Source: Pirellula staleyi DSM 6068
GTDB taxonomy: Bacteria > Planctomycetota > Planctomycetia > Pirellulales > Pirellulaceae
Length of the DNA stretch: 32,000 nucleotides
Direction: 5' to 3'
Assembly (NCBI GenBank): GCA_000025185.1
Contig: CP001848.1
Span: forward strand, 4,140,001 to 4,172,000
How positions within the stretch are numbered: position 1 is the stretch's first letter; the number at the start of each line of letters is the position of its first letter. The notes under the pieces are model-generated. The model was given only the letters and a program-made list of their open reading frames with translations. It was not told the origin of the DNA and did not search any database. The position numbers and the translations under genes are program-made. This document shows, in pieces, positions 15,394 through 32,000 of this stretch.

Positions 15394-15432
15394 GGGGCAG
15401 GGGGAGTCAAATCCTCGCTGCCCCTTTTTTTT
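15394..15432 (+). terminator. Rho-independent terminator of the protease gene
   Basis: ggggcag ... ctgcccc stem (15394-15400 / 15418-15424) followed by an 8-T run (15425-15432), 66 nt after the stop. It separates the protease from the moxR cluster. Confidence 0.7.
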
Positions 15433-15931
15433 GCACTCGTCGGTCGTAAATGGCAGCTGATGAGTGCCTGTTTACCCCTACGGATCGACCGGTGGCAGCA
15501 GGTTCGCATAAAGCTTGGCCTGCTGGTAGCAATAAGCTGTTGCCCCTACTACCATTAGAATCAGCAAACTCAGCTGCCAATTGACAGCTTGGGGATGCGG
15601 TTCGCGGTGACGGAGTGGCCGATAGCCGGAAGCTAGCGCACACTTGCGGTCGCGCGAGGCCGAGCCAAGGGGCAGTCGTCCAGCAGGGGGATAGCATTTG
15701 CTGCGAAGATTCGGTGAACCATCGACCATCGGTGGTGCACTAAAACTCGCCGCAAATTGCCACCACCAGCTGCTGGAGCGAGCCATTGTCGCGGCACGAC
15801 TCCTGTTCCTGCGAGTTTCCCATCGCTGATGCACTTCTCTTCCAGTGCATGGGCGAAAACTCAAGCGATCCCCTTCCGATTTGCTGTTTGCCTCACTGAT
15901 TTCCCGCCCCGTCCCTCGAAAGGCGATCTCG

Positions 15932-17008
15932 ATGGCCGACACCGGCTCGAACGAAGCTCTTACCGCGCAGGTCATTGCCGATTCCTCGGCGGTTCGCAAA
16001 CTGAGCGAAGCACGCGAACGCATTGTGGGTCAGCTGTCGCAAGTGATCGTCGGGCAAACCGGCGTCATCGAAGAGCTGCTGATCTCGCTCTTCGCCCGCA
16101 GTCACTGCTTGCTCGAAGGTGTGCCGGGGCTCGCCAAGACGCTCCTCATCAGCACCCTCGCTAAATCGCTGAACCTTTCGTTCAGCCGCATCCAGTTCAC
16201 CCCCGACTTGATGCCCGCCGACATCACCGGCACCGAAATCATCGAAGAGAACCGGTCGACCGGAGCTCGCGAACGACGCTTCCTCGAAGGTCCCCTCTTT
16301 TCCAACATGGTGCTCGCGGACGAAATCAACCGCACACCACCCAAAACACAAGCTGCGCTGCTGGAAGCTATGCAGGAACGGCAAGTGACGGTCGGCCGCG
16401 TGCGGCATGCTCTCTCCGATCCGTTTTTTGTGCTCGCCACGCAAAACCCGATCGAGCAGGAAGGTACTTATCCCCTTCCTGAGGCGCAGCAAGATCGCTT
16501 CATGTTCAAGGTGTTTGTGAACTACCCGAGCTTCCTCGAAGAGTTCGAGGTCGCGCGGCGCACCACCACCACGCAAAGCGAATCGATCAAGCCGGTGCTC
16601 AGCGCTGCGGAAATCGTCGAGCTCCAGCAGATTGTGCGAACGGTGATTGCCAGCGACCATGTGGTGCGCTATGCCTTGTCGCTGGTCCGTCAAACGCGCG
16701 TTGGTTCTCCCGGCATTCCCGACTTCGTCAACGACATGGTCGGCTGGGGCGCTGGTCCTCGCGCGGTGCAGTTCCTCATCCTGGGTGGCAAGGCCCGCGC
16801 TCTGCTCTATGGTCGCACGCAAGTCTCGACAGACGATATCCAGGCGCTGGCCAAACCGGTGCTACGCCACCGCATCGTGGTGAACTTCGCCGCGCAAAGC
16901 GATGGCATGACGAGCGACAAGATCATCGAAAAACTGATTGCCTGCACCCCGACCCGAGAGGATGAGCTCACCAGCGATGCCCGATTCAAAACGATTTTTG
17001 CATCCTGA
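15932..17008 (+). CDS. moxR: MoxR-family AAA+ ATPase
   Basis: [42 protein letters not shown] is the Walker A GxPGx[18 protein letters not shown] is present. [27 protein letters not shown] covers Walker B and sensor. [12 protein letters not shown] is present. The ATG at 15932 (MADTGSNE) gives 358 aa, the usual MoxR size. The ORF-track start at 15845 adds 29 atypical residues. Confidence 0.92.
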
Positions 17009-17879
17009 GGCGATCAAGCGGATCGCCAGGCTCGAAATTCGCGCTCGGCACGTCGTCGAAGGGTTCCTCGCGGGGATGCACCGCAGCCCTTACTTCGGTC
17101 AGTCGGTCGAATTTCTGCAGCACCGGGAATATGTGATCGGCGACGATCTTCGTCACGTCGACTGGAAAGTCTGGGCGCGGCAAGATCGTCTCTACATCAA
17201 ACAGTTCGAAGAGGAAACCAATCTTCGCTGCCATCTGCTCGTGGATATGTCGACGAGCATGATGTACGGCAATGGCCATCTCAATAAGTTCGACTACGCC
17301 GCGACCCTCGCCAGCAGTCTCGCGTGGCTGATTCTCAAGCAGCAAGATGCCGTCGGCTGCACGACGTTCGACGACCGGGTTCGCAGCGTCGTTCCTTGCC
17401 GCACGAAAAGCAATCATATTCTGTCGATCGTCGAGTCGCTGAATCTCGTCAAGCCGAGTGACAAGACCGACATGTTTGCGGTCCTCCGCGCGATGGCCGA
17501 AACAGCGCCGCGGCGTGGTGTGGTGGTGATCTGCAGCGATCTCTTGGCCGATCGCCCCGGGCTCTTCAAAGGACTGAGGCTTCTCCGTCAGCGCGGGCAC
17601 GAAGTGCTGGTATTCCACATCCTCGATAACGACGAACTGGAATTCCCATTCTCGGGACCCACCCGTTTTGAAGGACTCGAGTCCGACGATTTTCTCAACT
17701 GCAATCCCCGCGCACTTCGCGAAGGCTACCTCGCTGCCATGCAGGCTTTCCTCGACGAAGTCCGCCGCGAATGTGCCCGCGCGAGTGTCGATTACGCCTT
17801 GGTAAAAACGGGCGATCCACTCGATGCAGCCCTCGCCACGTTCCTCAGTAAACGACTCGCCGTGATGAACCGCTACTAG
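16977..17879 (+). CDS. DUF58 protein (VWA-like, MoxR partner)
   Basis: [62 protein letters not shown] is the canonical DUF58 core. A MIDAS-like [10 protein letters not shown] motif is present. The ATG at 16977 overlaps the moxR 3' end by 32 nt. Confidence 0.9.
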
Positions 17880-17972
17880 TTTTTTACTCTCGACTCAATT
17901 AGCCGCCGACGACCTTTCGACTGACACCTTACACCTTCGACTTTCACCCTTCGAACAAGCTCGCTTTTTGCC

Positions 17973-20297
17973 ATGCAATTTGTTCACCAGGCACTCACGT
18001 GGGGTTTTCTGCTGGCACTTGTGCCACTGCTGATTCACCTCATCAACATGATGCGACATCGTCGCGTCAAATGGGCTGCCATGGAGTTTCTGCTCGCGGG
18101 CTATAAGAAGCATCGCAAGTGGGTCTGGCTCAAACAGCTGTTGCTACTGTTGTCGCGCATGGCAGCGGTGGCGCTGCTGGTGGCGATGCTCGCGCAACTA
18201 AAAACGCAAGATCAGTGGCTGCAACTGTTCGGCGGCCAGGTGACCCACCACTATGTGCTGGTCGACGACAGCTACTCGATGGAAGACCGCGTCGCGGGAG
18301 CCTCGGCGCTCGATGCTGCCAAGAGTGTGCTGCGATCGATCGTCGAAGAAGCTCAGCAGCAAGATACGGCCCAGCGTCTGACGGTGATTCGCTACTCGCA
18401 AGCACGCGATTTTTCGAGCGCTGCCAAGGCGACCTCTTCTCCCGCGATCGATTTCAATGCCGAAACGATCAATAGCGATTTTGCGGTGACACTCGAGAAA
18501 CAATCGCGGACCATCGAACCGACGCAGCTGTCGCTCTCGCCGCTGGGGGCGATTGCGATGGTCAAACAACTCGTCACGAGCAGCCGCGACGAAAATGCCC
18601 TCATCTATTTGCTCTCCGATTTCCGCGAACGGGACTGGAAATCGCCAGCCGATGTTCGGGCCGCGCTCGAGGGGCTCAAGTCGAGTCGCACCGAGTTGCA
18701 TCTGGTGAACTGTGCTCGCGAAAGTCAGCCAAATCTCGGCATCGTGGCCATCCAGCCGGCCGATGAGACGCGCGCCGCGGGTGTGCCGCTGTTTGTTTAC
18801 GTCCGCGTGAAAAACTTCGGCACCACCGCTGTTTCGAAAGTGCAGCTGAAGATCGAATCGACCTTCTACGCTGCAGCCGATGTCGCGACGACACCTCCCG
18901 AGCAGCTCACCGGCCAGGTCGATGAACTCGCCACGCTGCTGCTTGAAAAGATCGAGCCGGGCGAAACGATCTCGCGGCGCGTGCAGGTCTATTTTCCACA
19001 GCCGGGCAAGCATGTCGTTTCGGCCACGCTCCCTGAAGATCCAGTCGCTTCGGACAACAAACATTTTTCGGTGATCGACTTCCCCGATGGGGAGCGTGTG
19101 TTGGTGGTCGACGGCCACGAAGAGGCCGAGAATGCCTACTACTTAGAGGCGGCGTTTCGTCCTCTCGAGAAGTCGAACACCGGTGTCCGACCCGAAGTGA
19201 AGCCAGCTGCATTTCTGCGCGATGCCAAGGCCGAAACGCTGGCCCCTTACTCGGCGATCTATCTGCTCGATGTCGATCGGCTCGACAATTCCGCTGTCGA
19301 GTTGCTCGAGACGTATGTTCGGACCGGAGGAGGGCTCGCGATTTTTGCGGGACCCAAGAACAACGTCGATTTCTACTCGCGTACGCTCTATCGCGATGGG
19401 ACCGGATTGCTGCCAGCACCACTAGGACTCGAGCAGCAGCTCGCGCCAGCCATCGATAGCGCGACACCCGATATCGAACTCACGCGACATCCGATCTTCA
19501 GTTTCTTTGTCGAAGAGACTAACCCGCTGATTCGCGGCGTGCGCATCGATCAGTATCGAGCCGTGCAAAAAGGGTTTGCTCCAACCGCCGAAAACCCGGT
19601 CGAGATCATTGCCAAACTTCGCAATGGAAGTCCGCTGGTGCTCGAGAAAAAAGTGGGGGAAGGCACTGTCATTCAGGTCATGACCACGCTCAACCCCGAG
19701 TGGAACGACTGGGCCAAAAATCCGAGCTTCGTCGTCGTGATGCTGAAACTGCAGTCGTACCTCGCCGCCCCCGCGCGGCTCGATGATCCGCGGCTCGTCG
19801 GCAGCCCACTACGCCTGGCGCTCGATGCCAATGCCTATCGCTCCGACGTCACTTTCGTGATCCCCGGCAAAACGGCGACCGGTCGCTCGCGAATTGATTT
19901 ACAACTCGAAGCCGACGAGAAAACTCCGGCCATCGCGACCGCTGCGATTGGTTTGCCCGGAACCGCGGTCAGCGGCGTTCGCCAAACCGATCGCGCGGGG
20001 ATCTACGAAGCTTTGCCTGTCACGACCAAGGGGGAAATCGACCTTCGGCGCTACAGCGTGAATGTCGATCCGCTGGAAGGAGACCTGGCGACGACACCGC
20101 CTGAAGACCTCGTCGAGCGACTCGATGGCATTGCGTTTAACTACCATTTGGCCGATCAGTATCAGCAGCAGTCGCTTGGCGAACCGGGCTACAACTGGAG
20201 CATGCTGCTCCTGGGGCTCTTGGTCCTGCTGCTGCTGGCGGAACAGTTCCTGGCCTACTCGGCGAGCTATCATCCGATTCTCGGAGGTGCTCGCTAA
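17973..20297 (+). CDS. BatA-N (aerotolerance regulator N-terminal, double-TM) / VWA / beta-sandwich / GATase1-like membrane protein with a C-terminal TM anchor
   Basis: The N-terminus FVHQALTWGFLLALVPLLIHLINMMRHRRVKWAAMEFL is BatA_N-type. A second TM helix follows, then HHYVLVDDSYSM (MIDAS DxSxS). A CARDB-like segment is present (FVYVRVKNFGTTAVSKVQL...PGKHVVSATL). A GATase1-like segment follows (RVLVVDGHEE...YSAIYLLDVDRL...YVRTGGGLAIFAGP). The C-terminal TM helix is WSMLLLGLLVLLLLAEQFLAY. Confidence 0.85.
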   Translation: MQFVHQALTWGFLLALVPLLIHLINMMRHRRVKWAAMEFLLAGYKKHRKWVWLKQLLLLLSRMAAVALLVAMLAQLKTQDQWLQLFGGQVTHHYVLVDDSYSMEDRVAGASALDAAKSVLRSIVEEAQQQDTAQRLTVIRYSQARDFSSAAKATSSPAIDFNAETINSDFAVTLEKQSRTIEPTQLSLSPLGAIAMVKQLVTSSRDENALIYLLSDFRERDWKSPADVRAALEGLKSSRTELHLVNCARESQPNLGIVAIQPADETRAAGVPLFVYVRVKNFGTTAVSKVQLKIESTFYAAADVATTPPEQLTGQVDELATLLLEKIEPGETISRRVQVYFPQPGKHVVSATLPEDPVASDNKHFSVIDFPDGERVLVVDGHEEAENAYYLEAAFRPLEKSNTGVRPEVKPAAFLRDAKAETLAPYSAIYLLDVDRLDNSAVELLETYVRTGGGLAIFAGPKNNVDFYSRTLYRDGTGLLPAPLGLEQQLAPAIDSATPDIELTRHPIFSFFVEETNPLIRGVRIDQYRAVQKGFAPTAENPVEIIAKLRNGSPLVLEKKVGEGTVIQVMTTLNPEWNDWAKNPSFVVVMLKLQSYLAAPARLDDPRLVGSPLRLALDANAYRSDVTFVIPGKTATGRSRIDLQLEADEKTPAIATAAIGLPGTAVSGVRQTDRAGIYEALPVTTKGEIDLRRYSVNVDPLEGDLATTPPEDLVERLDGIAFNYHLADQYQQQSLGEPGYNWSMLLLGLLVLLLLAEQFLAYSASYHPILGGAR

Positions 20298-23053
20298 TGA
20301 ACAGCTCCGCACCAATTACATCGCTACTACTGGCCGCCGATGATTCGGCCCGCGTCTTCTACCAACTCGGCCGCTTGCAATCGCTCACCGAATGGTGGCA
20401 CTGGCTGCTGCTGGTGGCGGTCGTCCTGATGGTCACCACCTATGTCTCGTGGATGTATCGCCGCGATGGTGTCGAATTGCCGCGCGCCATGTCGCTGCTG
20501 CTGTTGCTTCTGCGCGTCTCGGCGCTCGCCGGGGTGCTGTTTTTCTTTTTGCAGCTCGAGAAACGGACCGAACGCAAACTCGTTAAACCATCGCGCGCGA
20601 TGGTGATGGTCGATACCAGTCAATCGATGGGACTGCGCGATGCGTTGCCGGGGAGCACAGCCGGCCCGAGTCGCAGCGAAATCGTGGCGGAAGAGCTCAA
20701 AAGTGGCGGGCTCGTCGAGCAGCTGCGCGAGAAGCATGAAGTGACCGTTCTGCGTTTCGACGATGCCGAAATGCCGGTCGAAATCACGACTTTCCCTCGT
20801 AAACCAACCCCTGAAGAAACAGCCGCCTCTGCGATTGAACTTTCGGCCGAAGATCGGCTCGCCGCTGCTCGGCAACTCGCGCTGGTGGCTGCGGTGCTGC
20901 TCGGTATCGCGGCGATTCTCGCGCTAGTGGCCTGGTTTGGCAAACTGCCGGTCGCTGCGGGGGAAACTTCCTCGTGGGCCGCGCTCGTGGCGGGTGTGCT
21001 CCTCATCACCGGCCTCGTGGTTCTAGCGACTGCCAATCTGCGGAGCGAAGGGGTCGGGCCGCTCGCGATCCTCGGTCTTGCGCCCCCCGCTTCGAGCGCC
21101 GACGATGCCCCAACCGAAAGCGACGAGAAACCAGCCGAAGCGGTCATCGATTGGCAGGAAGCTGTCGCTCCTCGTGGTGGCGAAACGCGTATCGGCGACA
21201 ACTTGCAAGCGATCATCGATCGCGAACGGGGTGGCTCTCTCGCCGGCGTCGTGCTGGTGACCGATGGTGGCCAAAACGCCGGGCAAGATGTCGCCTCGGC
21301 ACTCGTTTCCGCACAAGACGCTCTGCTCCCGGTGATCACCATCGGCATGGGCTCCGATAAGCGTTCGATGAACCTTCGCGTGGTCGATCTCGAAGCTCCC
21401 GAGCGCGTCTATCCCGGCGATAAATTCACCCTCACTGGCTATGTGCAGGCAATCAACTACGCCAAGACCAGCGTGACGGTCGAACTCGTTTCGGTCCCCG
21501 ATGGTGGCACAACCGAGACCCGCGAAGACGAACGTGTGATCGACGTCGGCAGCCGGGGCGAGGTGATTCCGGTGGCGTTTGAACTAACTCCCGAAGAGCA
21601 AGGAATTCGCGAGTATAAGCTCCGCATCAAGCCGGTGGCTGGCGAGGTTGAAGCTCGCGACAACGAGAAAACCGCGAAGGTCGAAATCATCGATCGCAAA
21701 ACGAAAGTTCTGCTGGTCGCCGGTGGTCCGACGCGCGAGTTCATCTTCCTGCGAAACCAACTTTTCCGCGACCGCGAAACCACCGTCGATGTGCTGCTGC
21801 AAAGTGCCCGCCCTGGACTTTCGCAAGACGCTAACGAGATCCTTGAAAAGTTTCCGACGACCGAAGAAGAGCTGTTTGCTTACGATTCGATCGTTGCTTT
21901 TGATGCCGACTGGGATGAACTCGAGGAAGATCAGGTCCGCTTGCTCGAGCGCTGGGTCGCCGAAAAAGCAGGGGGGCTGATCGTTGTCGCCGGACCGGTC
22001 TTCACTCCGCAGTGGAGCAGTCGCCGACGCGGCGATATAAAAATCGACACCATCAAGTCGCTCTACCCGGTCGCCTTCTTCTACCAAGGTTCGGCAACCC
22101 TCAGTCTCGGCCGCTTTGGTAGCGAAGAAGCGTGGCCTCTCACCTTCACTCGCGACGGCGAAGAAGCTGAGTTCTTATGGCTCGGAGAGAACTCGAACAT
22201 CTCCGCCTGGAACGAATTCGAAGGGGTTTACGGCTACTATGCAGTGAAAGATCCCAAACCAGGAGCGCGAGTCTTCGCACGTTTTTCCGATCCCGAAACG
22301 GCGATCGACGGCGAGTTGCCGATCTACATGGCGGGGCATTTCTACGGCAGTGGTCGTGTCTTCTACATGGCCAGCGGCGAAATGTGGCGCGTGCGTGCGG
22401 TCGACGATGTCTACTTCGAACAGTTCTATACCAAACTGATCCGCTGGGCCTCGGCTGGCCGACTTTTGCGGAACTCGAGCCGGGGTGTGCTGCTGGTCGA
22501 CAAAGACCGCTGCGTACTTGGGGAAGACATCATCGTTCGCGCGATTTTGCAAGACGCGCAGTTTCAGCCTCTCGTCCAGGCGAAGGTCGATGCCGTCCTC
22601 GTCTCCCCGAGTGGTGCCCGAACAGTGCTGCCGCTCAATCAAGTGAAAGATGCCGCCCGCGAAGGGATGTACAGCGAACAATTCACGGCGGAAGAAGAGG
22701 GAGACTATCGCGTCGAACTTCAAAATCCGTCGGCTGGAGATGAACTGCTGGTGCAAGAGGTGCGGGTTCGTATTCCGGCTCTCGAAACCGAACAGCCGCA
22801 GCGTAACGACGCGCTTCTGAAGGAAATTGCTGACAAAACGGGTGGCCAGTATTTCATTGGGTTGGAATCGGCGGTGGGTGTCGACGACGCGACCGGCGTC
22901 CACGCTCTACTCCGCCCGCAAGACCAAGTGACGGTTCTTCCTGGCACACCCGATCGTCAGTTCGATCGTCAGTTGATGACCTGGCTCCTCACGTTCATTG
23001 CCACCGTTTTGAGTCTCGAGTGGCTGATCCGCCGCTTGAGTCGGCTGGCCTAA
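20297..23053 (+). CDS. Multi-TM VWA / GATase1-like membrane protein, similar in architecture to the upstream gene
   Basis: The ATG overlaps the previous stop (TAATG). There are two N-terminal TM helices, then AMVMVDTSQSMG (MIDAS). GGETRIGDNL and GVVLVTDGGQNAG are the later VWA motifs. KVLLVAGGPTREFIFLRN...YDSIVAFDADWDEL...WVAEKAGGLIVVAGP is GATase1-like. The C-terminal TM helix is LMTWLLTFIATVLSLEWLI. Confidence 0.8.
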   Translation: MNSSAPITSLLLAADDSARVFYQLGRLQSLTEWWHWLLLVAVVLMVTTYVSWMYRRDGVELPRAMSLLLLLLRVSALAGVLFFFLQLEKRTERKLVKPSRAMVMVDTSQSMGLRDALPGSTAGPSRSEIVAEELKSGGLVEQLREKHEVTVLRFDDAEMPVEITTFPRKPTPEETAASAIELSAEDRLAAARQLALVAAVLLGIAAILALVAWFGKLPVAAGETSSWAALVAGVLLITGLVVLATANLRSEGVGPLAILGLAPPASSADDAPTESDEKPAEAVIDWQEAVAPRGGETRIGDNLQAIIDRERGGSLAGVVLVTDGGQNAGQDVASALVSAQDALLPVITIGMGSDKRSMNLRVVDLEAPERVYPGDKFTLTGYVQAINYAKTSVTVELVSVPDGGTTETREDERVIDVGSRGEVIPVAFELTPEEQGIREYKLRIKPVAGEVEARDNEKTAKVEIIDRKTKVLLVAGGPTREFIFLRNQLFRDRETTVDVLLQSARPGLSQDANEILEKFPTTEEELFAYDSIVAFDADWDELEEDQVRLLERWVAEKAGGLIVVAGPVFTPQWSSRRRGDIKIDTIKSLYPVAFFYQGSATLSLGRFGSEEAWPLTFTRDGEEAEFLWLGENSNISAWNEFEGVYGYYAVKDPKPGARVFARFSDPETAIDGELPIYMAGHFYGSGRVFYMASGEMWRVRAVDDVYFEQFYTKLIRWASAGRLLRNSSRGVLLVDKDRCVLGEDIIVRAILQDAQFQPLVQAKVDAVLVSPSGARTVLPLNQVKDAAREGMYSEQFTAEEEGDYRVELQNPSAGDELLVQEVRVRIPALETEQPQRNDALLKEIADKTGGQYFIGLESAVGVDDATGVHALLRPQDQVTVLPGTPDRQFDRQLMTWLLTFIATVLSLEWLIRRLSRLA

Positions 23054-23249
23054 AAGTCCGTTTGATAGCATCCAGGTGGCGGCGGCAACGCCTTCACCGA
23101 AAAAATGTAGCTGGCCGAGGCGAATCTCGGCAAAACCGACAGCGGCTGGCGAAGTTGAGTTAGACGCGCAACTGTACACTCCGATAGAATAAGGAATCGC
23201 ACCTCCGCGGTTTGCCTCTCCCAGGTCCCACGGCGAGCGACGAATTGGT

Positions 23250-25679
23250 ATGGCCACCACTGCCAACCCCATCTCGGATAACACCAACCCAACGAGCGAC
23301 ACTCGTCTGGGACAGTTCCGCCCTCTGCTTGCAAGCTTGCGTTGGCGGATTCGCCTCTATATTTGGCTCGAAGGGCTCGCTCTGGCGGCGATTTGGCTCG
23401 GTGTCACCTTCTGGCTTGCACTGGCGGCCGACTATTTGCCGGTGATCGCTGGCGCCTCGGAAATGCCACTGGCCGCGCGTGCTATTGTCGCCGCTGTCGT
23501 GGCTGCGGTCACACTCTATATCCTGTGGTACTACATCGCCCGCCGCGCCTTTGTTCCGCTGCGCGACGAAAGCATGGCGATTCTGCTCGAGCGGCAATAT
23601 GCCGGTTTTCAGGACGCCCTGGTCACCTCGGTGGAACTCGCCGGCAAGCAAGGTGGTCCCCAAGCAGGCAAAGATATTCCGCCGGCTGAAATGGTCGAGC
23701 GAACCGTCAAACAGGCCGCCGCCAGTGTCGGCGAAGTCCGTCTGGCGAAGGTTTTTAACCTCACGCCGCTGCTTCTCAAGTTGCTGCTCGGCACCCTGGC
23801 GATCGGCTCGATTGGTTTGCTCGGCATCATCAGCCGACCGACCCTCGCCACCGCCGCCGATCGTTTGATCCTGCTCGGCAGCACCGACTGGCCCCGCAGC
23901 GCGATCCTCGAAATCGTCGGGGTGGAACTCGAACGCAAAGCCGAGCCGGGACAGCCGCCGCTCCGGCCCATTCTGCTGCCGTTTGAAAATGGGATTGTGA
24001 AAGTGGCCCGAGGGAGCAGCGTGAGCTTAAAGGTTCGCGCGCTACAAACACCGGCTGCCAAGATCGTTCCTGCCAGTTGCACCGTCTATTACCAAAGCGT
24101 AACGACGGGCCAGGCTCGAGGCGAACGAGGCAACGTGGTGATGAGCAATTTTCGCGACACCGACGATCATCGTAACTTCTGGTTCGATGGCAAGCCGTTC
24201 CGCAGCGTCCTTTCGACGATTGTGTTTGACGTAGTGGGCTACGATGCGCGGCTGCGCGATCTGCGGCTCGAAGTGGTCGATAGTCCGGCCGTGATCGAAA
24301 CCACGCTCGACCTCACTTATCCCCCCTATCTTGTCGACGAAGCGACCTCGAACTTTTTGCCCACCAAGGGGAAAGCCTATCTCCCCTCCGGCACTTTTGT
24401 TCCAGCAGGTACCGAAGTGACGCTGCAAATGCGGAGTTCGAAAAACCTCCGCGAAGCGACAATCACACGAAGCGATACCGGCGAGCGAACCGTGATCGAC
24501 ATGACCAAGCAAAAGAGCCGCGAACGTTTTTCGTTCCAGGTTCCAGCGCTTCGTGAAAGCGTTTCGCTCGACGTGCTGCTGATCGACGAAGACAACGTTC
24601 CCTCCGACAAACCGTATCGCGTTTTCCTCACGGCGATTGAAGATCAAGCACCTGTCGTCGATGTGCGGCTGAAGGGGATCGGCACCAGCGTGACCCCCGA
24701 TGTTCGGATTCCGATGCAAGGCAAAGTGACCGACGACTATGCCATCGAGCGGGCCTGGATCGTTGCGCAAGTGAACGACAGTGGCGATCCGCAGCAGATC
24801 CCCGCGATACTAGCTACCGGCGGCGCGCTCGATGTGGCGACCGATTTCCGCGAGCAGCGGACTGCCAAAACGCCGCTCGAGATCAAACCGGGTGACAAGT
24901 TGTTCCTCGCCGTGGAAGCGGTCGACCGTTTTAATCTGAGCGATGCGCCGCACACCGGTTCGGGCGATCGCTGGGAACTCGAAGTCGTTACCCCCGACCA
25001 ATTGCTCGCCTCGCTCGAAGTTCGCGAACTCGGAATGCGTCGTCGACTCGAGCAGATTCTCGACGAAATGATGCAGCTGCGTGATTCGCTCCTGCGAGTG
25101 AAATCGAGCCTCGCCCCCTCTTCGTCGGTGGGCAATTTGGAAGAACTCCGAAGTGACGACGATCCTGAGGCCAAGCCCCTCACCGCTGCCGAAATTGCTC
25201 GGCGTCAGGCCGAGGTTCGATTGCTCCGCGTGCAACGAGCGCTACAGCAGTCGCAAAAGTCGGTGCAAGAGGTGCAGGGTGTTGCTGCCGGTTTCCTCGA
25301 TATTCGCGAGGAACTCATCAACAACCGGGTCGACACCGAAGATCGCAAAAATCGTCTCAAAGACTTAATCGCCGATCCGCTGAACAAGTGTGCCGAGGTG
25401 ATGTTCCCCGAGCTTGATCGCCGGATCATCCTGCTCGAAGAGAAATTGCGTGACACTGCGCAGCCAGCGGGAGATGATGTTCCTGGGGCTACCGATACGG
25501 CCATCGACCAGTCGTCGGCCACCATTGCCGAGCTCGAAGCGGTGCTCGAAAAGATGCTCGATCTCGAAACGTATAACGAACTGCTCGATATTGTTCGCTC
25601 GCTGATCAAAGATCAAGAAGAGCTGAGTGAGAAGACCAAGCAAGAGCGTAAGCGTCAGGCTCTCGAGGATTTGAAGTAA
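23250..25679 (+). CDS. Large membrane protein of unknown function: 3 TM helices, beta-rich middle, about 230-aa C-terminal coiled coil. Possibly DUF4175-like.
   Basis: TM helices: LYIWLEGLALAAIWLGVTFWLALAA, AARAIVAAVVAAVTLYILWYYI, LLLKLLLGTLAIGSIGLLGII. Two similar modules begin VVDSPAVIETTLDL and IEDQAPVVDVRLKG. The C-terminal part is heptad-like and charged (LEQILDEMMQLRDSLLRV...KDQEELSEKTKQERKRQALEDLK). The codon bias looks like coding sequence. No enzymatic motif was seen. Confidence 0.7.
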   Translation: MATTANPISDNTNPTSDTRLGQFRPLLASLRWRIRLYIWLEGLALAAIWLGVTFWLALAADYLPVIAGASEMPLAARAIVAAVVAAVTLYILWYYIARRAFVPLRDESMAILLERQYAGFQDALVTSVELAGKQGGPQAGKDIPPAEMVERTVKQAAASVGEVRLAKVFNLTPLLLKLLLGTLAIGSIGLLGIISRPTLATAADRLILLGSTDWPRSAILEIVGVELERKAEPGQPPLRPILLPFENGIVKVARGSSVSLKVRALQTPAAKIVPASCTVYYQSVTTGQARGERGNVVMSNFRDTDDHRNFWFDGKPFRSVLSTIVFDVVGYDARLRDLRLEVVDSPAVIETTLDLTYPPYLVDEATSNFLPTKGKAYLPSGTFVPAGTEVTLQMRSSKNLREATITRSDTGERTVIDMTKQKSRERFSFQVPALRESVSLDVLLIDEDNVPSDKPYRVFLTAIEDQAPVVDVRLKGIGTSVTPDVRIPMQGKVTDDYAIERAWIVAQVNDSGDPQQIPAILATGGALDVATDFREQRTAKTPLEIKPGDKLFLAVEAVDRFNLSDAPHTGSGDRWELEVVTPDQLLASLEVRELGMRRRLEQILDEMMQLRDSLLRVKSSLAPSSSVGNLEELRSDDDPEAKPLTAAEIARRQAEVRLLRVQRALQQSQKSVQEVQGVAAGFLDIREELINNRVDTEDRKNRLKDLIADPLNKCAEVMFPELDRRIILLEEKLRDTAQPAGDDVPGATDTAIDQSSATIAELEAVLEKMLDLETYNELLDIVRSLIKDQEELSEKTKQERKRQALEDLK

Positions 25680-25713
25680 CACACGCCCTGTGCGTGGAAA
25701 GGATTAGTTACTG

Positions 25714-27735
25714 ATGACCCATTCCCTATGGCTGAAAATTCGTCGAGCAACCTCGCTGGCTCTCGCGCTACTGATCACCTTCACCTCGAGTGGACTTCCC
25801 CTCCGTTTGCTCGTCGCGCAAGAGCCTGCGCAGCCCGAAGCTGCCAAGGAAGAAGCTGCCGCTGAGTCGACCGAGTCGAGCGTTTCTGCCTCCGACGAAC
25901 TGGCTCTCTCGCAAGGTCAGCTCGCCGATAAGTACACGCGACTCGAAGAGCTGCTGTTCAAGATGGCGTCGCTCGAAGCGGCCACCAATCCGCGCCGTGC
26001 CGCGCTGCTGACTCGCGCCGTCGAGCAATCGAAAGAGCGGCTCACCAAGACCCAGCTTGAAACGATCGCGAAACTTCTGTCGCAAAAACAGCTGAAGCGT
26101 GCTGTTGATGGTCAGGTCGCTGCCTCGACCGATCTCAAAGCGCTCCTCGAGCTCCTGCTGAGCGAAGATCGCTCCGACCGTTTGAAGAGCGAACAAGCGC
26201 GCATCAAGGAATACATCAAAGAGGTCGAGCGTCTCCTTCGTCTGCAAAAATCGTTGCAAGGACAAACTGAAGGGGGAGCGACTCCCGATCGACTCGCCAA
26301 AGAGCAGGGTGAAGTTGCCGAGCGGACCGGTGACCTCGCTCAAAAAATCAAAGAGACCGAAGAAGGGGCCTCTCCCTCGGAAGAAAAACCGGGCGATGAA
26401 CAACCTGGCGAATCAAAGCCCGGTGAAGAGAAACCTGGCGAAGCAAAACCGGGCGAGCCGATGCCAGGTGAACAGAAGCCGGGCGAAGGGAAGCCGATGA
26501 GTGGCGAACCGATGGAAGGGAAACCTTCGGAAGGGAAGCCCTCGGAAGGCAAACCGAGCGAAGGCAAGCCAATGGAAGGGAAGCCGGGCGAAGAAAAGCC
26601 GAAAGAACCGATGCCTGGAGAGCCCAAGCCCGGTGAAGAAAAACCTAGTGAAGAAAAACCTAGTGAAGAAAAGCCTGGAGAAGAGAAGCCGGGCGAGCAA
26701 AAGCCGATGGAAAGCAAGCCCATGGAGGGTGAGTCCTCTGAAGGCAAACCGATGAGTGGCGAGCCGATGGAAGGGAAACCCTCCGAGGGCAAACCATCCG
26801 AGGGCAAGTCCTCCGAAGGCAAGCCGAGCGAAGGGAAACCATCCGAAGGGCAGCCATCGGAAGGGAAACCGCAAGAGAGTCAGCCCCAAGAGCAGCAGCC
26901 CGAGAATCCGGCGCGCAAGAGCCTTGAAGAAGCTCAGAAGCGGATGCAAGAAGCGCAGAAGCGACTCGAAGAAGCCAAGCGTAACGAGTCGGTTGACGAG
27001 CAGCGGAAGGCCAAAGAAGAACTCGAGAAAGCGAAGGCGCAGCTCGAGGAGATTTTGCGTCAGCTGCGCGAAGAAGAAATCAAACGGACCCTCGCGGCTT
27101 TGGAAGCACGCTTTCGCAAGATGCTCGAAATGCAGCTGGTGGTTTACGAATCGACACGACGCCTCGATCAACTTCCCGCCGACAGCCGCGGCGAAGCTTT
27201 TATTGTGCAGTGTGGCAAGCTCGCGTTCGACGAACGCAAAATTGCTCTCGAAGCGCAAAAGGCCTTGGCAATCCTGGAGGAAGAGGGATCGTCGGTAGCG
27301 TTTCCCGCTTCGGTGGAGCAGATGCGCGAGGATATGGATCAGGTCGGAAATCGACTGGCCGAAACGCGCGTCGACGACATCACGGTGGGAATTGAAGAAG
27401 ACATTATCTCCGCGCTGGAAGAAATGATCGAAGCCTTGCAGAAGGCTCAAAAAGATCAGGAAGAGCAAGAACAACAACAGCAGCAGCAACAACAGCAGGG
27501 TGAGCCCGAAGATCAGCCTCTGGTCGATAAAATCGCCGAGCTGAAGATGATCAAGGCGCTGCAAGAGCGTGTGAACAAGCGGACTAATCGCTATGCCCGT
27601 TTGCTCGAAGACGAAGAGGATGTGGTGGGTCAGGCTGAGTCAGCCGATCTGGTCGACGCGCTGCGTCAATTGAGCGAGCGACAGCAAGAGATTTTCCGCA
27701 TCACCCGCGATATTGTGCTCGGAAAAAATAAATAA
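25714..27735 (+). CDS. Secreted coiled-coil protein with a 35-unit pentapeptide (E-x-K-P-x) repeat and a 9-Gln tract; unknown function
   Basis: GGAAAGGA lies upstream of the ATG. The signal/anchor is LALALLITFTSSGLPLRLLVAQE. Charged heptad-rich segments flank the repeat (aa 223-399). QQQQQQQQQ is at 27482-27508. Confidence 0.75.
   Translation: MTHSLWLKIRRATSLALALLITFTSSGLPLRLLVAQEPAQPEAAKEEAAAESTESSVSASDELALSQGQLADKYTRLEELLFKMASLEAATNPRRAALLTRAVEQSKERLTKTQLETIAKLLSQKQLKRAVDGQVAASTDLKALLELLLSEDRSDRLKSEQARIKEYIKEVERLLRLQKSLQGQTEGGATPDRLAKEQGEVAERTGDLAQKIKETEEGASPSEEKPGDEQPGESKPGEEKPGEAKPGEPMPGEQKPGEGKPMSGEPMEGKPSEGKPSEGKPSEGKPMEGKPGEEKPKEPMPGEPKPGEEKPSEEKPSEEKPGEEKPGEQKPMESKPMEGESSEGKPMSGEPMEGKPSEGKPSEGKSSEGKPSEGKPSEGQPSEGKPQESQPQEQQPENPARKSLEEAQKRMQEAQKRLEEAKRNESVDEQRKAKEELEKAKAQLEEILRQLREEEIKRTLAALEARFRKMLEMQLVVYESTRRLDQLPADSRGEAFIVQCGKLAFDERKIALEAQKALAILEEEGSSVAFPASVEQMREDMDQVGNRLAETRVDDITVGIEEDIISALEEMIEALQKAQKDQEEQEQQQQQQQQQGEPEDQPLVDKIAELKMIKALQERVNKRTNRYARLLEDEEDVVGQAESADLVDALRQLSERQQEIFRITRDIVLGKNK
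26380..26910 (+). repeat. In-frame 15-nt tandem repeat array (35 consecutive pentapeptides, e.g. EGKPS / EEKPG / EGKPM) with a 255-nt higher-order duplication
   Basis: By hand parsing, Pro is at unit position 4 in 33 of 35 units and Glu at position 1 in 32 of 35, with no phase break. Units 8-13 (EGKPM SGEPM EGKPS EGKPS EGKPS EGKPM) recur as units 25-30, 17 units later, with many synonymous nucleotide differences. Confidence 0.9.
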
Positions 27736-27809
27736 GTCGGACCGGTCGAAGTCGGTGGGTGTGTCGCTGACATACCCTGGAAGTTGTCCGTGGGTAGGGA
27801 GTATCCGCC

Positions 27810-28871
27810 ATGAAACGATGGAACACCGAACGAAGATTTCTGCCGTGGCTCGCTGCCGCAGCGCTGTTGCTGGTACCAGCCTCGCACGGCATCGCTGCCG
27901 ACGAACTGGCCCGCGCAGCTTCGTGGCAGCAGACTTCGCCCGTCGAAGCGCGCGAGGTACTCACGCAGCTGCTCGCGGAAATCAAAGCCGACGAACTGAC
28001 GCTCGCCAAGGTCGACGCGCTGTGGCCTGCCGAGGGAAATCCTCCAGCCGGTCTGCAAACGCTCGATCTGTTTTGCGCGGCACTGGCCGCGATCGATCCT
28101 GAAGTTCAGCCGATACTCGATCTGGTGAGCGAGCCTCGGGCAACGTTCCAGATTCCGAAGTTCGAAATTCTGGCCGATGAATCGCGCCCTTTGGCGATGC
28201 GCAGCAATCTTCGCCTGCTTGTTGGGCGCTGGCTCGCGCAGCAAGGGCTCGTCGATGAAGCGAAAGAAATGCTCGCCAGTATCGATGTGAAAGAAGTGGT
28301 CGACCCGACCTCGCTCCTCTTCTTTCGCGCGGTAGCTCACCACCGTCTGCTCGAAAAAGATCCTTGCCTCGCCGATGTCGCCAAGCTCCTCGAAAACGAA
28401 GCGTTGCTCCCCCGTCGTTATGTGCAGCTCGCCAAGTTGATGCAGGCCGATCTCGCTCCGCTGAAGCCTGATTCGCTCGACGAAGTTGCGCGGCTGATGG
28501 ACGATGTGCGTCGCCGTCTCGACCTTGGTCGGGCCGGGAAACGTGTGCGCGACGAAGAAGAGGAAGTAGTGAAAAAACTCGAGAAAATGATCGAAGAACT
28601 CGAGAAACAGCAGCAGCAACAACAGCAGCAAGCCTCGAGCGGCGGCAGCAATCCGTCGCCATCTTCCCCCATGCAAGATAGTCAGGCGGCTCAGCTGAAA
28701 GGTCCCGGCGAAGTCGATCCCAAAGAGGTTGGCAAGCGCGATGGTTGGGGCAATCTGCCACCGAAGGATCGTCAGGAAGTGCTGCAGCAGATCGGTCGTG
28801 AGCTTCCCGCCCACTTCCGTGAAACCATCGAAGAGTATTTCAAGCGACTCGCCCAGGATGGAGTGAAATAG
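27810..28871 (+). CDS. Secreted helical protein with an 8-Gln tract; unknown function
   Basis: The signal peptide is RRFLPWLAAAALLLVPASHGIAADE. The body is helical and Leu-rich. KKLEKMIEELEKQQQQQQQQ is present (poly-Q at 28608-28631). The conserved-looking C-terminus is NLPPKDRQEVLQQIGRELPAHFRETIEEYFKRLAQDG. GGGAG lies upstream of the ATG. Confidence 0.75.
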   Translation: MKRWNTERRFLPWLAAAALLLVPASHGIAADELARAASWQQTSPVEAREVLTQLLAEIKADELTLAKVDALWPAEGNPPAGLQTLDLFCAALAAIDPEVQPILDLVSEPRATFQIPKFEILADESRPLAMRSNLRLLVGRWLAQQGLVDEAKEMLASIDVKEVVDPTSLLFFRAVAHHRLLEKDPCLADVAKLLENEALLPRRYVQLAKLMQADLAPLKPDSLDEVARLMDDVRRRLDLGRAGKRVRDEEEEVVKKLEKMIEELEKQQQQQQQQASSGGSNPSPSSPMQDSQAAQLKGPGEVDPKEVGKRDGWGNLPPKDRQEVLQQIGRELPAHFRETIEEYFKRLAQDGVK

Positions 28872-28877
28872 ACGACG

Positions 28878-30143
28878 ATGGTTGGTTCCTTTGCGAGTTC
28901 GATACGTCTCACCAGTTTCCTGCTGGCAGTTTTGGGCGCACTAAGCGCTAGCTCGAGTCTAGCGTTAGCCGAGGGCCTCAAGGTGGTGCTGCGCCGCGCG
29001 AGTGGCGATGTCGAGACCGCGCAGCTGAGCGCTCTCGATAGCGAAAAAGTGGAAGCCACCATCGCGGGAAAACTAACGACCATTCCGATTGCCGATCTGC
29101 TCGCCGTCGAACTCTCGGGGGCTCGCATTGCGGTCGCGCCGCAGGCCTGGCTCGAACTGCTCGATGGCTCCACGCTGCTCGCCACCGACTTCACCACCAC
29201 CTCGGGGACTGCTCAGTTCAAACTGCTGAGTGGTCAAGAGTATTCGATCCCCACACGCTCGCTCCGAGCGGTTCGCTTTCGTCCGGGAACGGAAGCGACG
29301 AACAAAGCCTGGGCCGATATCGTCGGAGGTGATTTGACCGGCGATCTGCTGGTGATTCGCAAAACGGCGGAAGCCTCGGAAGATGCGCCGGCTGAAGGGG
29401 GTATTGTGCTCGATCAACTCGACGGCGCGATTCTAGGAGTCGCTGCCACCACAGTGAAATTCGACTTCGATGGTGACAAGATCGATGTGAAGCGCGAGAA
29501 GCTCGAAGGGATTGCCTTCTATCAGCCTGTCGCACGCAATCTCACCCGTCCGCTCTGCCAGTTGCTCGACCGGGGTGGTGGTCGCTGGATGGTGAAGTCG
29601 ATGAAACTCGAAGGGGAAAATCTCGCGGTTGAAACGCCGGTCGGTGCGCGGATCAATCTGCCGCTGGCCGATCTGGCGACGATCGACCTGGCCGCTGGCA
29701 ACCTCCTCTTCCTCACCGATCTGGAGCCGGAAAAGCGCGACGCTCTGTTCGGGCTTCAGCCTGCGGGGATGACCGCCACCTTTGCTCAGCTGTATCAAAA
29801 TCGGGCGAGCGATACTCCCTTCAAACTTGATGGGAGCACGCATGCCCGCGCCCTTGCGCTGCATGGCAAATCGACCCTCACTTATCGCCTCCCCGAAGGA
29901 TTCAAGAGCTTGCGAGCGGTGGTTGGAATCGACGACGCCGTGCAAGCCAGTTCGCGCGTGCAGCTGACGATCGTGGTCGACAATCGCGAACTCTTTAAAG
30001 GTGAATTTGACAACGATCATCGAGGGCCTGTGAACCTGGATCTCGATGTGACCGGTGCGCGTCGATTGGTGATTCTGCTCGAGCCGCTGGGGCCCGACTT
30101 GCGAGCGCAGTTGCTCCTCTGTCAGCCCCGCTTATCCCGCTAA
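28878..30143 (+). CDS. Secreted protein: four beta-rich internal repeats plus a C-terminal NPCBM-like (carbohydrate-binding-module-like) domain
   Basis: The start lies 6 nt after the previous stop. The signal peptide is LTSFLLAVLGALSASSSLALA/EG. The C-terminus FKLDGSTHARALALHGKSTLTYRLPEGFKSLRAVVGIDDAV...VQLTIVVDNRELFKGEF...PVNLDLDVTGARRLVILLEP follows the NPCBM pattern (l.l.G..y.kGlG.Ha.s...y.l...y..f.a.vGvDD...v.F.V..D......p..l.vdv.ga..L.L.v). Confidence 0.7.
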   Translation: MVGSFASSIRLTSFLLAVLGALSASSSLALAEGLKVVLRRASGDVETAQLSALDSEKVEATIAGKLTTIPIADLLAVELSGARIAVAPQAWLELLDGSTLLATDFTTTSGTAQFKLLSGQEYSIPTRSLRAVRFRPGTEATNKAWADIVGGDLTGDLLVIRKTAEASEDAPAEGGIVLDQLDGAILGVAATTVKFDFDGDKIDVKREKLEGIAFYQPVARNLTRPLCQLLDRGGGRWMVKSMKLEGENLAVETPVGARINLPLADLATIDLAAGNLLFLTDLEPEKRDALFGLQPAGMTATFAQLYQNRASDTPFKLDGSTHARALALHGKSTLTYRLPEGFKSLRAVVGIDDAVQASSRVQLTIVVDNRELFKGEFDNDHRGPVNLDLDVTGARRLVILLEPLGPDLRAQLLLCQPRLSR

Positions 30144-30191
30144 AACCGACCGCCACGCCCGTCGACCCGATGAGGCCAGAAGGCAAGCACG

Positions 30192-32000
30192 ATGAAGATG
30201 ATTTTTTCCACCGCGAAACAGCTGATCGCCGCACTCTTCGTCGCGCTTTTGCAACTGAGTGACGCCGCGATCGCGCTGGCGCAAGAGGCGACGGAAGATA
30301 CTGTCGCCAAATCGGCCACGCTGGTTCCCGCTGCTGTTCTTGAAGCGGAGAACAAACGGATCTTGGCGATCGAGCGTGGTGTCCGCTCGACGATCTCGGT
30401 CTTCTCCGCCGATGGCAATGGTGGTGGCTCGGGGGTGATGGTTTCGGCCGATGGCTATGCCCTCACCAACTTCCACGTGGTGCAGCCTTGCGGCAACTTT
30501 ATGAAATGCAGCTTGCCCGACGGCAATCTCTACGATGCCGTGGTGGTGGGGATCGATCCGACTGGCGATGTGGCGCTCATCAAGCTGCTGGGACGCGATG
30601 ACTTCCCACCCGCCACGCTGGCCGATAGCGACAAAGTCCGCGCCGGTGATTGGTGCTTTGCGGTGGGCAATCCATTCCTGCTGGCGACCGATTTTCAGCC
30701 GACCGTGTCGTATGGCATCGTGTCGGGAGTGCATCGCTATCAATACCCGGCCGGCACTTTGCTCGAATACGCCGACTGCATTCAAACCGATGCCGCGATC
30801 AATCCGGGTAACTCCGGAGGGCCTTTGTTTAATAGCAGCGGCGAACTGATTGGTGTGAATGGACGTGGCTCGTTCGAAAAACGGGGCCGGGTGAATGTCG
30901 GGGTGGGCTATGCCATCTCGATCAACCAGATCAAGCATTTCATGGGCTGTTTGCGAAGCGGACGGATCGTCGACCACGCGACAGCGGGCTTCAGTGTTGC
31001 CACCGCTGCTGAAGGGGGCGTGCTCGTTTCGAACATCCTCGAATCGAGCGATGCCTATAAGCGGGGCCTCCGCTACGACGACGAAATCATCGCCTTCGGC
31101 GGCCGCTCGGTGAATTCGGCCAACGCTTTCAAAAACATCCTCGGGATCTTTCCTAAAGGGTGGAAGGTTCCGCTCACCTATCGCAACGAGGCAGGCACCC
31201 ACGACATCGTGGTGCGACTCACCGGCGTGCATGGGGAAGAAGAACTGATCGGACTCGTGCAAAAGCAGGTCGAGGCAGAAGGCCCCAAGCCCATGCCCCG
31301 CCCGATGCCTATGCCCATGCCCGGTGAAGAAAAGCCAGGCGCAGAGAAACCGGAAGAGAAAAAAGCAGCGCCAGCCCCTGCCACCAAACCGGGCGTGCCT
31401 CCGGTGAGCGACGAGCTGAAAAAATGGTTCGTCGGTCGACTCGGCTATGCCAACTATCACTTCAATAAGCTCGAGCTCGATCGCGTTTGGTCGTCGGCCA
31501 CCCAAGACTGCAATCTTGCCGAGGCAACAGGCACCTGGAAGATCGCCGGGACGATCGAAGGCAAAGGTGATTTTCTTTGCGAGCTCTCGAGTACCAAGGC
31601 TTCGATGACCCTAGCCGGGACCACAATTGAGCTTGATCTCGCGAAAGATCTCGACGAGCAAAAAGGTCCAGTAGGGACCGGCGGCTTACTAGTCTCGCTC
31701 TATTTGTGGCGGATGATGCTGGTCGAAGGTCCGGCCAAGTATGGCGAGGTCAGTTACTACGGAACGGCTCCCGATCCTGGTTTTCTCGCGGAAAATGCCG
31801 TGATGTACGATGTATTGTCGGCTGTTCGCAATGTGGTGGAATCGCAACTGCAGTTTTCGCCGAGCGATGGCCGTTTGGCGATTGTCGAATCGCTGGTCGA
31901 CCCCGATGCCGATCCTTGTCGCCTCGTGATGAGCGACTACAAAGCGGCCGGGCCGATGCAGCTTCCCCATCGTTTGTCGATCTCGACCGGCGGTGTGCTG
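30192..32000 (+). CDS. Secreted HtrA/DegP-type (S1C) serine protease with one PDZ-like domain, a Pro/Met/Lys/Glu linker and a long unknown C-terminal extension. The 3' end lies outside the window.
   Basis: This gene is not in the supplied ORF track because it has no stop in the window. I translated frame 3 by hand: 603 codons are open from ATG 30192 to nt 32000. The signal peptide is MKMIFSTAKQLIAALFVALLQLSDAAIALA/QE. Triad contexts: ALTNFHVV (His), GDVALIKL (Asp), NPGNSGGPLFN (Ser). The PDZ-like segment is GVLVSNILESSDAYKRGLRYDDEIIAFGG. The 457-aa antisense ORF 30132..31505 is therefore spurious. Confidence 0.85.
   Translation, partial: MKMIFSTAKQLIAALFVALLQLSDAAIALAQEATEDTVAKSATLVPAAVLEAENKRILAIERGVRSTISVFSADGNGGGSGVMVSADGYALTNFHVVQPCGNFMKCSLPDGNLYDAVVVGIDPTGDVALIKLLGRDDFPPATLADSDKVRAGDWCFAVGNPFLLATDFQPTVSYGIVSGVHRYQYPAGTLLEYADCIQTDAAINPGNSGGPLFNSSGELIGVNGRGSFEKRGRVNVGVGYAISINQIKHFMGCLRSGRIVDHATAGFSVATAAEGGVLVSNILESSDAYKRGLRYDDEIIAFGGRSVNSANAFKNILGIFPKGWKVPLTYRNEAGTHDIVVRLTGVHGEEELIGLVQKQVEAEGPKPMPRPMPMPMPGEEKPGAEKPEEKKAAPAPATKPGVPPVSDELKKWFVGRLGYANYHFNKLELDRVWSSATQDCNLAEATGTWKIAGTIEGKGDFLCELSSTKASMTLAGTTIELDLAKDLDEQKGPVGTGGLLVSLYLWRMMLVEGPAKYGEVSYYGTAPDPGFLAENAVMYDVLSAVRNVVESQLQFSPSDGRLAIVESLVDPDADPCRLVMSDYKAAGPMQLPHRLSISTGGVL

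Follow-up and report, generated by a model that had tools for sequence, protein, structure and literature searches.

MoxR AAA+ ATPases act with partners carrying VWA domains and a metal-ion-dependent adhesion site (MIDAS) on dedicated target complexes (PMC3893208, PMC9976466), and the NorQ/NorD pair illustrates the working principle (PMC9976466). For RL3499, of the MRP (MoxR Proper) subfamily, an important role in cell morphology and membrane integrity has been reported (PMC3893208). Few bacterial gene clusters lacking a molecular function are as widespread as MoxR-DUF58-BatA operons, and the function of the Bat proteins is likewise undefined (PMC5700661, PMC3557215). Here, we analyzed a MoxR/DUF58/VWA cluster at positions 15932–32000 of a 32,000-nucleotide (nt) stretch of the Pirellula staleyi DSM 6068 genome (CP001848.1, positions 4,140,001–4,172,000), referred to as the window. 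Literature searches returned no paper describing this planctomycete cluster. We propose that its genes are the first nine of a vertically inherited, two-module, eleven-gene Pirellulales envelope system, and that a MoxR/DUF58-driven inner-membrane VWA platform is coupled in it to a periplasmic scaffold and HtrA complex serving envelope maintenance. This reading is tentative, with a probability of roughly 45%.

Conserved eleven-gene array in Pirellulales

Nine co-directional open reading frames (ORFs) on the + strand fill the cluster to the end of the window (Table 1). Their recomputed junctions (-32, 93, -1, 196, 34, 74, 6, and 48 nt) are identical to those of an initial annotation, which was made from the sequence alone and had counted nine genes. 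That count falls short, as the window end cuts the array. Protease 1 is followed by two further Trypsin_2/PDZ genes, giving eleven co-directional genes, both in a sister strain (Pirellulaceae metagenome-assembled genome (MAG) GCA_002483025.1, contig DLHC01000012.1; 98.8% DNA identity to the window) and in Anatilimnocola aggregata ETAA8, whose genome is complete. The flanking genes are unlike between these two genomes, which sets the boundaries of the cluster. The changed codons between the window and the sister strain, 146 synonymous and 26 non-synonymous for the nine genes together, indicate that all nine are genuine and under purifying selection.

A genome scan seeded with the 809-aa protein, the first product of the distal block, identified 73 loci, all in Pirellulales-type records and including Anatilimnocola, Blastopirellula marina DSM 3645, and Ca. 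Anammoximicrobium. The tblastn survey of gene order used loci with enough flank, 42 of them reaching 9.8 kb or more downstream and 49 reaching 8.5 kb or more upstream. All six genes after the 809-aa gene were found in order in 40 of the 42 loci, the two exceptions lacking the last gene alone, and 38 of the 49 had the four-gene core immediately upstream. One further locus lacked only moxR, at the locus edge. The distal block stood beside unrelated genes in the remaining ten, which indicates two modules that are separable and usually fused. Intergenic gaps across the array, as estimated in this survey, were small or negative. Four distant relatives, 22–30% identical to their query (itself 32% identical to the window 809-aa protein), kept the gene order as far as their contigs reach. 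Divergence from the window was correlated among all eleven genes (rho of 0.43–0.95), as expected for vertical co-inheritance.

The initial annotation had named synteny of the distal genes with moxR and DUF58 as a check on its proposal, and this synteny was borne out by the 38 loci and by an order kept down to 22–30% identity; HMM searches placed no distal gene in a characterized unrelated pathway. Its description of a Bat-like core "extended" by the distal genes needs revision, in that the distal block is a separable module whose attachment is not obligatory. As a separate observation, a Ca. Anammoximicrobium MAG (L029:6-2401) keeps the 918-aa and 809-aa genes, while a histidine kinase and CRISPR-associated genes (Cas_APE2256, Csm6 HEPN) replace the first three core genes.

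The two long gaps upstream of distal genes and within the core (23054–23249 and 17880–17972) were 100% identical to those of the sister strain, compared with approximately 1% differences, mostly synonymous, in the flanking genes. They may therefore be constrained regulatory sequence or, at the module boundary, an internal promoter. An unusual RNA fold was not detected in the 196-nt gap (z = -0.02). The same boundary gap is short elsewhere, with an approximate median of 70 nt and lengths of 8–67 nt in loci L077, L078, and L003.

These data bear directly on the strongest alternative, namely that two unrelated operons, an ordinary four-gene MoxR operon of the Bat/RL3499 type and a seven-gene periplasmic scaffold/protease operon, are adjacent by Pirellulales ancestry and do no joint work. 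The lone distal blocks of the ten loci, found beside an amidohydrolase, a Ser/Thr kinase, a methyltransferase, or a His-biosynthesis gene, are what it would predict, and the 196-nt gap with its promoter-like site falls exactly at the module boundary. Internal promoters are reported for Bat clusters elsewhere (PMC3557215). However, order and orientation persist in the 38 loci over 34–58% anchor identity, which is unusual for unrelated operons, and the adjacency is also seen in the distant L077 and L078, with a gap there often of 8–70 nt. The conserved loop of the 809-aa protein, predicted to be cytoplasmic, would moreover need a cytoplasmic partner. We consider two independent operons unlikely, while giving this alternative serious weight.

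Table 1. Features of the cluster, with positions in the window unless another locus is named.
Feature	Position	Strand	Details
Intrinsic terminator	15394–15432	+	Stem and T8; closes the upstream S8 subtilase gene; 5' cluster boundary
MoxR AAA+ ATPase, MRP-type (predicted), 358 aa	15932–17008	+	AAA_3, AAA_lid_2
DUF58 protein (PF01882), 300 aa	16977–17879	+	DMSTS MIDAS motif at 17244–17258; putative cytoplasmic VWA-like adaptor
BatA-like membrane protein, 774 aa	17973–20297	+	BatA_N double transmembrane (TM) segment; VWA (DDSYS at 18264–18278); Ig-like and ThuA/GATase1-like regions; C-terminal TM
Paralogue of the 774-aa protein, 918 aa	20297–23053	+	Five TM; split VWA (DTSQS at 20612–20626); Ig-like and ThuA-like regions
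196-nt gap, core/distal boundary	23054–23249		Promoter-like (sigma-70-like) site at 23161–23190
Anchor protein, 809 aa	23250–25679	+	Predicted N-in; three TM; cytoplasmic loop of ~75 aa; ~four Ig-like domains; C-terminal helical bundle
Exported helical protein, 673 aa	25714–27735	+	Central acidic low-complexity spacer, residues 210–379 (26341–26850)
Exported TPR-like protein, 353 aa	27810–28871	+	Q-rich linker; almost invariant C-terminal two-helix motif WGNLPPK..R..EEYF.RLA
Exported NPCBM/NEW2 protein, 421 aa	28878–30143	+	C-terminal lectin-like domain at 29799–30086
Protease 1, HtrA-like serine protease, 616 aa in full	30192–32000	+	Window lacks the last ~14 codons; weak PDZ; uncharacterized C-terminal domain
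Proteases 2 and 3, 340 and 652 aa	L001:18792–21830; L003:18619–21634		Beyond the window end

Core module

Predicted localization is ordered along the array, as proposed initially. In a hydropathy scan, MoxR and the DUF58 protein showed no hydrophobic segment; the 774-, 918-, and 809-aa proteins showed three, five, and three TM-like segments, at positions kept across 52–73 orthologues; and the last four window proteins had signal-peptide-like N-termini. The three DxSxS motifs listed by the initial annotation are all present and 91–98% conserved among 52–60 orthologues. Its list of families held in part: AAA_3, DUF58, BatA_N, NPCBM, and Trypsin_2 were recovered, VWA (in the 774- and 918-aa proteins) and PDZ scored below the Pfam gathering scores, and DUF4175 went undetected.

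The first gene product matches AAA_3 (1.2e-62; 210 bits against a cut-off of 27) and AAA_lid_2 (1e-16), with 2R44 as its best PDB relative (1.5e-76). Its Walker A (16118–16141) and Walker B DE (16319–16324) codons were located, and the motifs GVPGLAKT and LADE are 96–100% conserved in orthologues. DUF58 lies directly downstream of moxR, followed by BatA_N/VWA proteins, which is the gene neighborhood of MRP members. Judged from its domains and this neighborhood, MoxR is of the MRP type.

The second protein matches DUF58 (2.9e-52; 177 bits against a cut-off of 23.4) and VWA_2 (1e-9). Its D90, S92, and S94 are 98% conserved, and T164 and D188 are also conserved, which completes the MIDAS set. The 32-nt overlap of moxR and DUF58 (16977–17008) is constant in length across 48 loci (interquartile range of -32 to -32), suggesting translational coupling.

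Two large membrane proteins complete the core. The 774-aa protein matches BatA_N (2e-10; 41.4 bits against 25.9) and TIGR02226 (1e-12; 48 against 23), with all three TM positions conserved in orthologues; its VWA matches (16–18 bits) are below threshold, and its DxSxS is 91% conserved. The strongly basic TM1–TM2 loop would place its large domain in the periplasm, and for the BatA-like BB0173, a periplasmic VWA domain has been shown experimentally (PMC5700661). The 918-aa family is paralogous to it (hhalign probability of 95.7%, E of 1e-8 over 400 columns), although a BatA_N match was not obtained for the 918-aa protein, and its architecture differs greatly. Its VWA fragments, at residues 102–191 and 283–372, are again below threshold (20 bits), while the TM positions are conserved in 53–58 of 58 orthologues and the complete MIDAS residues (DxSxS, T297, and D323) are conserved. 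A conserved two-helix TM hairpin (residues 194–246) splits the VWA domain (residues 106–372, nt 20612–21412), with DxSxS before the hairpin and the MIDAS Thr and Asp after it. This architecture is unusual, and it leaves the topology of the protein ambiguous. The large VWA/Ig/GATase1-like domains of both proteins most likely face the periplasm. PDB searches by sequence gave no relative of the DUF58 or 918-aa proteins. The Bat-like core of the initial annotation, comprising MoxR, DUF58, a BatA_N/VWA protein, and a paralogous, putative VWA membrane protein, is supported.

Distal block

Apart from the NPCBM and trypsin domains, nothing in the distal proteins scored above threshold in Pfam or NCBIfam. 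The coiled-coil or spacer, lectin-like, and HtrA descriptions given to them initially were broadly right.

The 809-aa family is large, with 2494 clusters at 50% identity at E<=1e-3 and 677 at E<=1e-30, and none of 41 diverse members has a Pfam or NCBIfam match. The AlphaFold2 (AF2) model of the window protein (pLDDT of 85) contains three TM helices with a helical segment between, approximately four Ig-like sandwiches, and a long C-terminal helical bundle, and Foldseek related it to generic Ig/FN3/MG arrays alone. By the positive-inside rule, with loop charges read off the sequences themselves, the N-terminus and loop residues 98–170 would be cytoplasmic. Within this loop, A110, E114, L124, and T126 are invariant even in the most diverse alignment. 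DUF4175 (PF13779)/TIGR02302 was considered for this protein and rejected, as neither it nor 40 diverse relatives gave a match in Pfam/NCBIfam at E<=1. A DUF4175 match appeared in one of 38 members of the 353-aa family (5.5e-4), possibly via low-complexity sequence.

The acidic spacer of the 673-aa protein is a five-residue K-P-x-E-x repeat encoded by 15-nt tandem units (E43/P33/G29/K28 of 170 residues), which explains an AT-skew spike of 0.48 at 26001–27000. Its orthologues have a charged low-complexity center of 150–220 residues, whose length is roughly kept while its composition drifts, and an in-frame 60-nt indel (20 residues) in the spacer distinguishes the window from the sister strain. 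Residues 531–602 (27304–27519) are homologous to residues 220–284 (28467–28661) of the 353-aa protein (hhalign 94.7%, E of 6e-8), a relationship for which BLASTP of the two proteins gave no match. The common segment is helical, has approximately 65 residues, and ends in poly-Q.

The AF2 model of the 353-aa protein is all-alpha (pLDDT of 75). Every top Foldseek match was a TPR protein, with weak scores (best E of 0.04), and a distant orthologue matched TPR_6 at 6e-5. DUF4088 (PF13317) was matched below its cut-off (16.3 bits against 23.8) by the C-terminal motif only; 37 of 38 relatives likewise matched the DUF4088 C-terminus below threshold (E<0.01, best 2.4e-5), and one, P0397, carries a precomputed PF13317 assignment. 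The PDB sequence search returned only non-significant matches of E >= 0.07.

The 421-aa protein matches NPCBM at residues 308–403 (4e-16; 59.7 bits against 23.9), and this domain is a putative carbohydrate-binding module. Its N-terminal ~300 residues read as beta-rich, with perhaps four similar segments of ~70 residues. It is the least conserved member of the cluster (25–42% identity across orthologues), and no PDB relative was found by sequence.

Such domains invite the explanation that the cluster encodes a surface or periplasmic apparatus for glycan binding, adhesion, or nutrient capture, which the MoxR core only assembles. It would account for the NPCBM match, for an Ig/FN3-like array resembling adhesin or receptor ectodomains, and for a long disordered spacer of variable length. 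The cluster, however, contains no outer-membrane component, secretion system, or glycoside hydrolase; all its proteins carry only Sec-type signals or inner-membrane anchors, and the protein expected to bind the glycan is the one that varies most. Such an apparatus appears improbable.

HtrA-like proteins

Protease 1 is 602–616 aa long in the sister strain and A. aggregata, its full length being seen in L001. It matches Trypsin_2 (5e-34) and, over the protease and PDZ region, degP_htrA_DO (TIGR02037; 2.7e-64), below the equivalog cut-off; its PDZ scored 21.7 bits against a cut-off of 23.2. The His-Asp-Ser triad (codons of H95 at 30474–30476, D126 at 30567–30569, and S208 at 30813–30815) is kept in 45–47 of 47 orthologues, and this predicts protease 1 to be the sole catalytically competent member of the three.

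Proteases 2 and 3 retain the trypsin fold and PDZ domains. The triad positions are occupied by S/E/(A,P,T,G) in protease 2 and by N/M/Y in protease 3, with no or almost no exceptions among 42–45 orthologues, and from these residues both are classed as conserved pseudoproteases. The PDZ domains of protease 3 number two, and its additional alpha/beta-hydrolase-like domain has lost the nucleophile in most orthologues. Signal peptides are present on all three.

A further explanation is ATP-dependent degradation, with substrates recruited by the VWA proteins, unfolded by MoxR, and cleaved by the HtrA-like peptidase. MoxR, VWA proteins, and a peptidase do occur together in this one conserved cluster, and degradation has been hypothesized for operons combining MoxR, vWA, and transglutaminase-like peptidase genes (PMC3495828). 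Export signals, absent from MoxR and the DUF58 protein and present on all three HtrA-like proteins, would nevertheless put the unfoldase and the peptidase in separate compartments. With two of the three peptidases inactive and seven further proteins left unexplained, we regard this scheme as quite improbable.

Ternary conflict systems are defined by a VMAP or iSTAND third component, with high architectural variability and effector displacement (PMC7159879). A MoxR-vWA conflict (defense) system with a trypsin-fold effector, raised initially as a conflict or stress alternative, is hardly credible here: a secondary MoxR match to bpMoxR (5e-11) and the trypsin-like peptidases of some ternary systems (PMC7159879) speak for it, whereas AAA_3 far outscores bpMoxR, Pfam scans of the window proteins found no VMAP or iSTAND family, PADLOC was negative but for a generic trypsin-fold match to the protease, the architecture does not vary across the order, the flanking genes are ordinary, and the correlated divergence of all genes points to vertical descent.

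Terminators and genomic context

The hairpin preceding the cluster has a GC-rich stem, GGGGCAGGGGGAG...CCTCGCTGCCCC, followed by T8, as read directly from the sequence, and the 71-nt stretch containing it (15380–15450) folds at -25.5 kcal/mol; the terminator called here by the initial annotation is a textbook intrinsic one. A consensus terminator scan of 15000–32000 yielded 24 sites, compared with 20.9 expected from shuffles. Its seven + strand sites all lie within coding sequence and none in an intergenic gap. An intrinsic terminator was not found after the eleventh gene in L001, and no Rfam RNA family was detected in the window.

The upstream neighbor (10844–15328) encodes a 1494-aa secreted subtilase (Peptidase_S8) with SdrD_B, GEVED, Big_9, and dockerin domains and is missing from this position in Anatilimnocola. 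Other genes of the window encode an alpha-amylase/4-alpha-glucanotransferase C-terminal domain protein (127–1101), a flavodoxin-like protein and an Rrf2 regulator (1133–2499, - strand), an AAA_26 dethiobiotin-synthase-like protein (2565–3377, - strand), a 1091-aa Ser/Thr kinase (5347–8622, - strand), and a BBP7 beta-barrel porin-like protein (9083–10495). A partly common promoter-like block precedes moxR in a subset of loci (L014, L019, L023, L024, L034, L040, L043, L054, L059, and others): CTAGGCAA or CTGGAAC, ~17 nt, and TATnnTTA. The k-mer GCACTAA occurred in 10 of 44 regions upstream of moxR, with the window copy near 15737–15743.

Proposed mechanism

Within the proposed system of an inner-membrane platform coupled to a periplasmic complex, the first module would comprise cytoplasmic MoxR, a cytoplasmic DUF58 adaptor whose MIDAS is complete, and two polytopic paralogues in the inner membrane, and the second a periplasmic block of the 809-aa anchor and the acidic-spacer, TPR-like, NPCBM, and three HtrA-like proteins. 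By analogy with other MoxR/VWA pairs, an acidic residue in a cytoplasmic part of some membrane partner would be bound at the DUF58 MIDAS site. This part may be the region of the basic BatA_N loop in the 774-aa protein or the conserved 809-aa loop, in which E114 is invariant. MoxR would then spend ATP to remodel or assemble the partner. A scaffold, its state set in this way, may be built in the periplasm from the VWA and Ig domains and from the helical acidic, TPR-like, and NPCBM proteins. This scaffold would position an HtrA heteromer, with one active and two inactive subunits, that processes or quality-controls envelope proteins, the predicted output being envelope maintenance. We infer the topology, all physical contacts, and the function, and likewise the MoxR-matured assembly suggested in the initial annotation.

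Several points weigh against this reading. Ten of the 49 loci have a distal block with no core immediately before it, and coupling is thus not obligatory; in this window, the modules are separated by a 196-nt gap with a promoter-like site. With MoxR cytoplasmic and the protease periplasmic, the coupling would have to cross short loops, for which there is no precedent. The 918-aa protein has a basic cluster after TM2, which makes its topology ambiguous, and the model-based TPR assignment of the 353-aa protein is weak. A Leptospira Bat deletion had no phenotype (PMC3557215).

A bolder version is a control device acting across the membrane: hydrolysis of ATP by MoxR/DUF58 in the cytoplasm would be relayed through the cytoplasmic loops of the BatA-like and 809-aa proteins to the ATP-free periplasm, where it would gate a dedicated heteromeric HtrA machine, with one active and two pseudoprotease subunits, on the Ig/TPR/acidic-spacer scaffold. 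If true, the widespread MoxR-DUF58-BatA class would thereby gain its first defined client and output; we consider this version a distinctly unlikely prospect.

Comparison with known systems

In Pirellulales, the same seven proteins, each exported or anchored and exactly one of them a predicted active HtrA protease, nearly always follow the core, and they provide a list of candidate clients or partners. A contact between the DUF58 MIDAS site and E114 of the 809-aa loop is testable, and the cultured carriers A. aggregata ETAA8 and B. marina DSM 3645 make experiments feasible. At least three sizeable protein families for which Pfam and NCBIfam have no model emerge from the analysis, together with two putative conserved HtrA pseudoproteases. 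The cluster is a robust starting point for work on MoxR/Bat function, but the gain is incremental. The class of system is known, and an extended Bat-like operon will be no great surprise to a specialist.

The Bat operon (moxR-DUF58-batA-batB-batC-batD-batE; bb0170-bb0176 in Borrelia) has the same opening of MoxR, DUF58, a BatA_N VWA protein, and a second, here putative, VWA membrane protein, and beta-rich and TPR-type envelope proteins follow in both (PMC5700661, PMC3557215). The two VWA proteins of this cluster are two to three times longer than their Bat counterparts, with Ig-like and GATase1-like domains and a C-terminal TM, and one of the VWA domains is split by a TM hairpin. BatC, BatD, and BatE (TPR, SH3) gave no sequence match to the distal proteins of the window, even at E<=10 for four of them, and the acidic spacer, NPCBM, and three HtrA-like proteins have no Bat counterpart. 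Since the core agrees with an MRP-type MoxR and BatA while BatC, BatD, and BatE are lacking by sequence, we describe it as a Bat-like core and not as a Bat operon.

The RL3499-RL3502 operon of Rhizobium leguminosarum shares the MRP-type MoxR; it has four genes and, unlike the present cluster, no distal block. Among its other products are a DUF58 protein and two large membrane proteins. In magnetotactic bacteria, MamE and MamO pair an active HtrA protease with a degenerate paralogue, so that HtrA paralogues, one competent and the others not, stand in one cluster there as predicted here. Protease 1 scores 1e-35 and 6e-17 against them, far below the cut-offs; the similarity is that of HtrA proteins in general and not orthology, and a magnetosome context is lacking. 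The present cluster also differs in having two predicted pseudoproteases, one of them fused to an inactive alpha/beta-hydrolase-like domain.

NorQ/NorD, CbbQ/CbbO, and RavA/ViaA combine the same MoxR class of ATPase with a VWA/MIDAS partner and provide the mechanistic template (PMC9976466, PMC3893208). They belong to other MoxR subfamilies, with soluble partners and cNOR, Rubisco, and Nuo/fumarate reductase as clients, whereas the client of this cluster is presumed to be a membrane protein. MoxR-vWA ternary conflict systems share MoxR and vWA and sometimes trypsin-like peptidases (PMC7159879); this cluster lacks their variable effector domains, its architecture being fixed and its inheritance vertical. 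The MoxR/DUF58/BatA core is familiar from these systems, and the lineage-wide seven-gene periplasmic block that accompanies it is previously undescribed.

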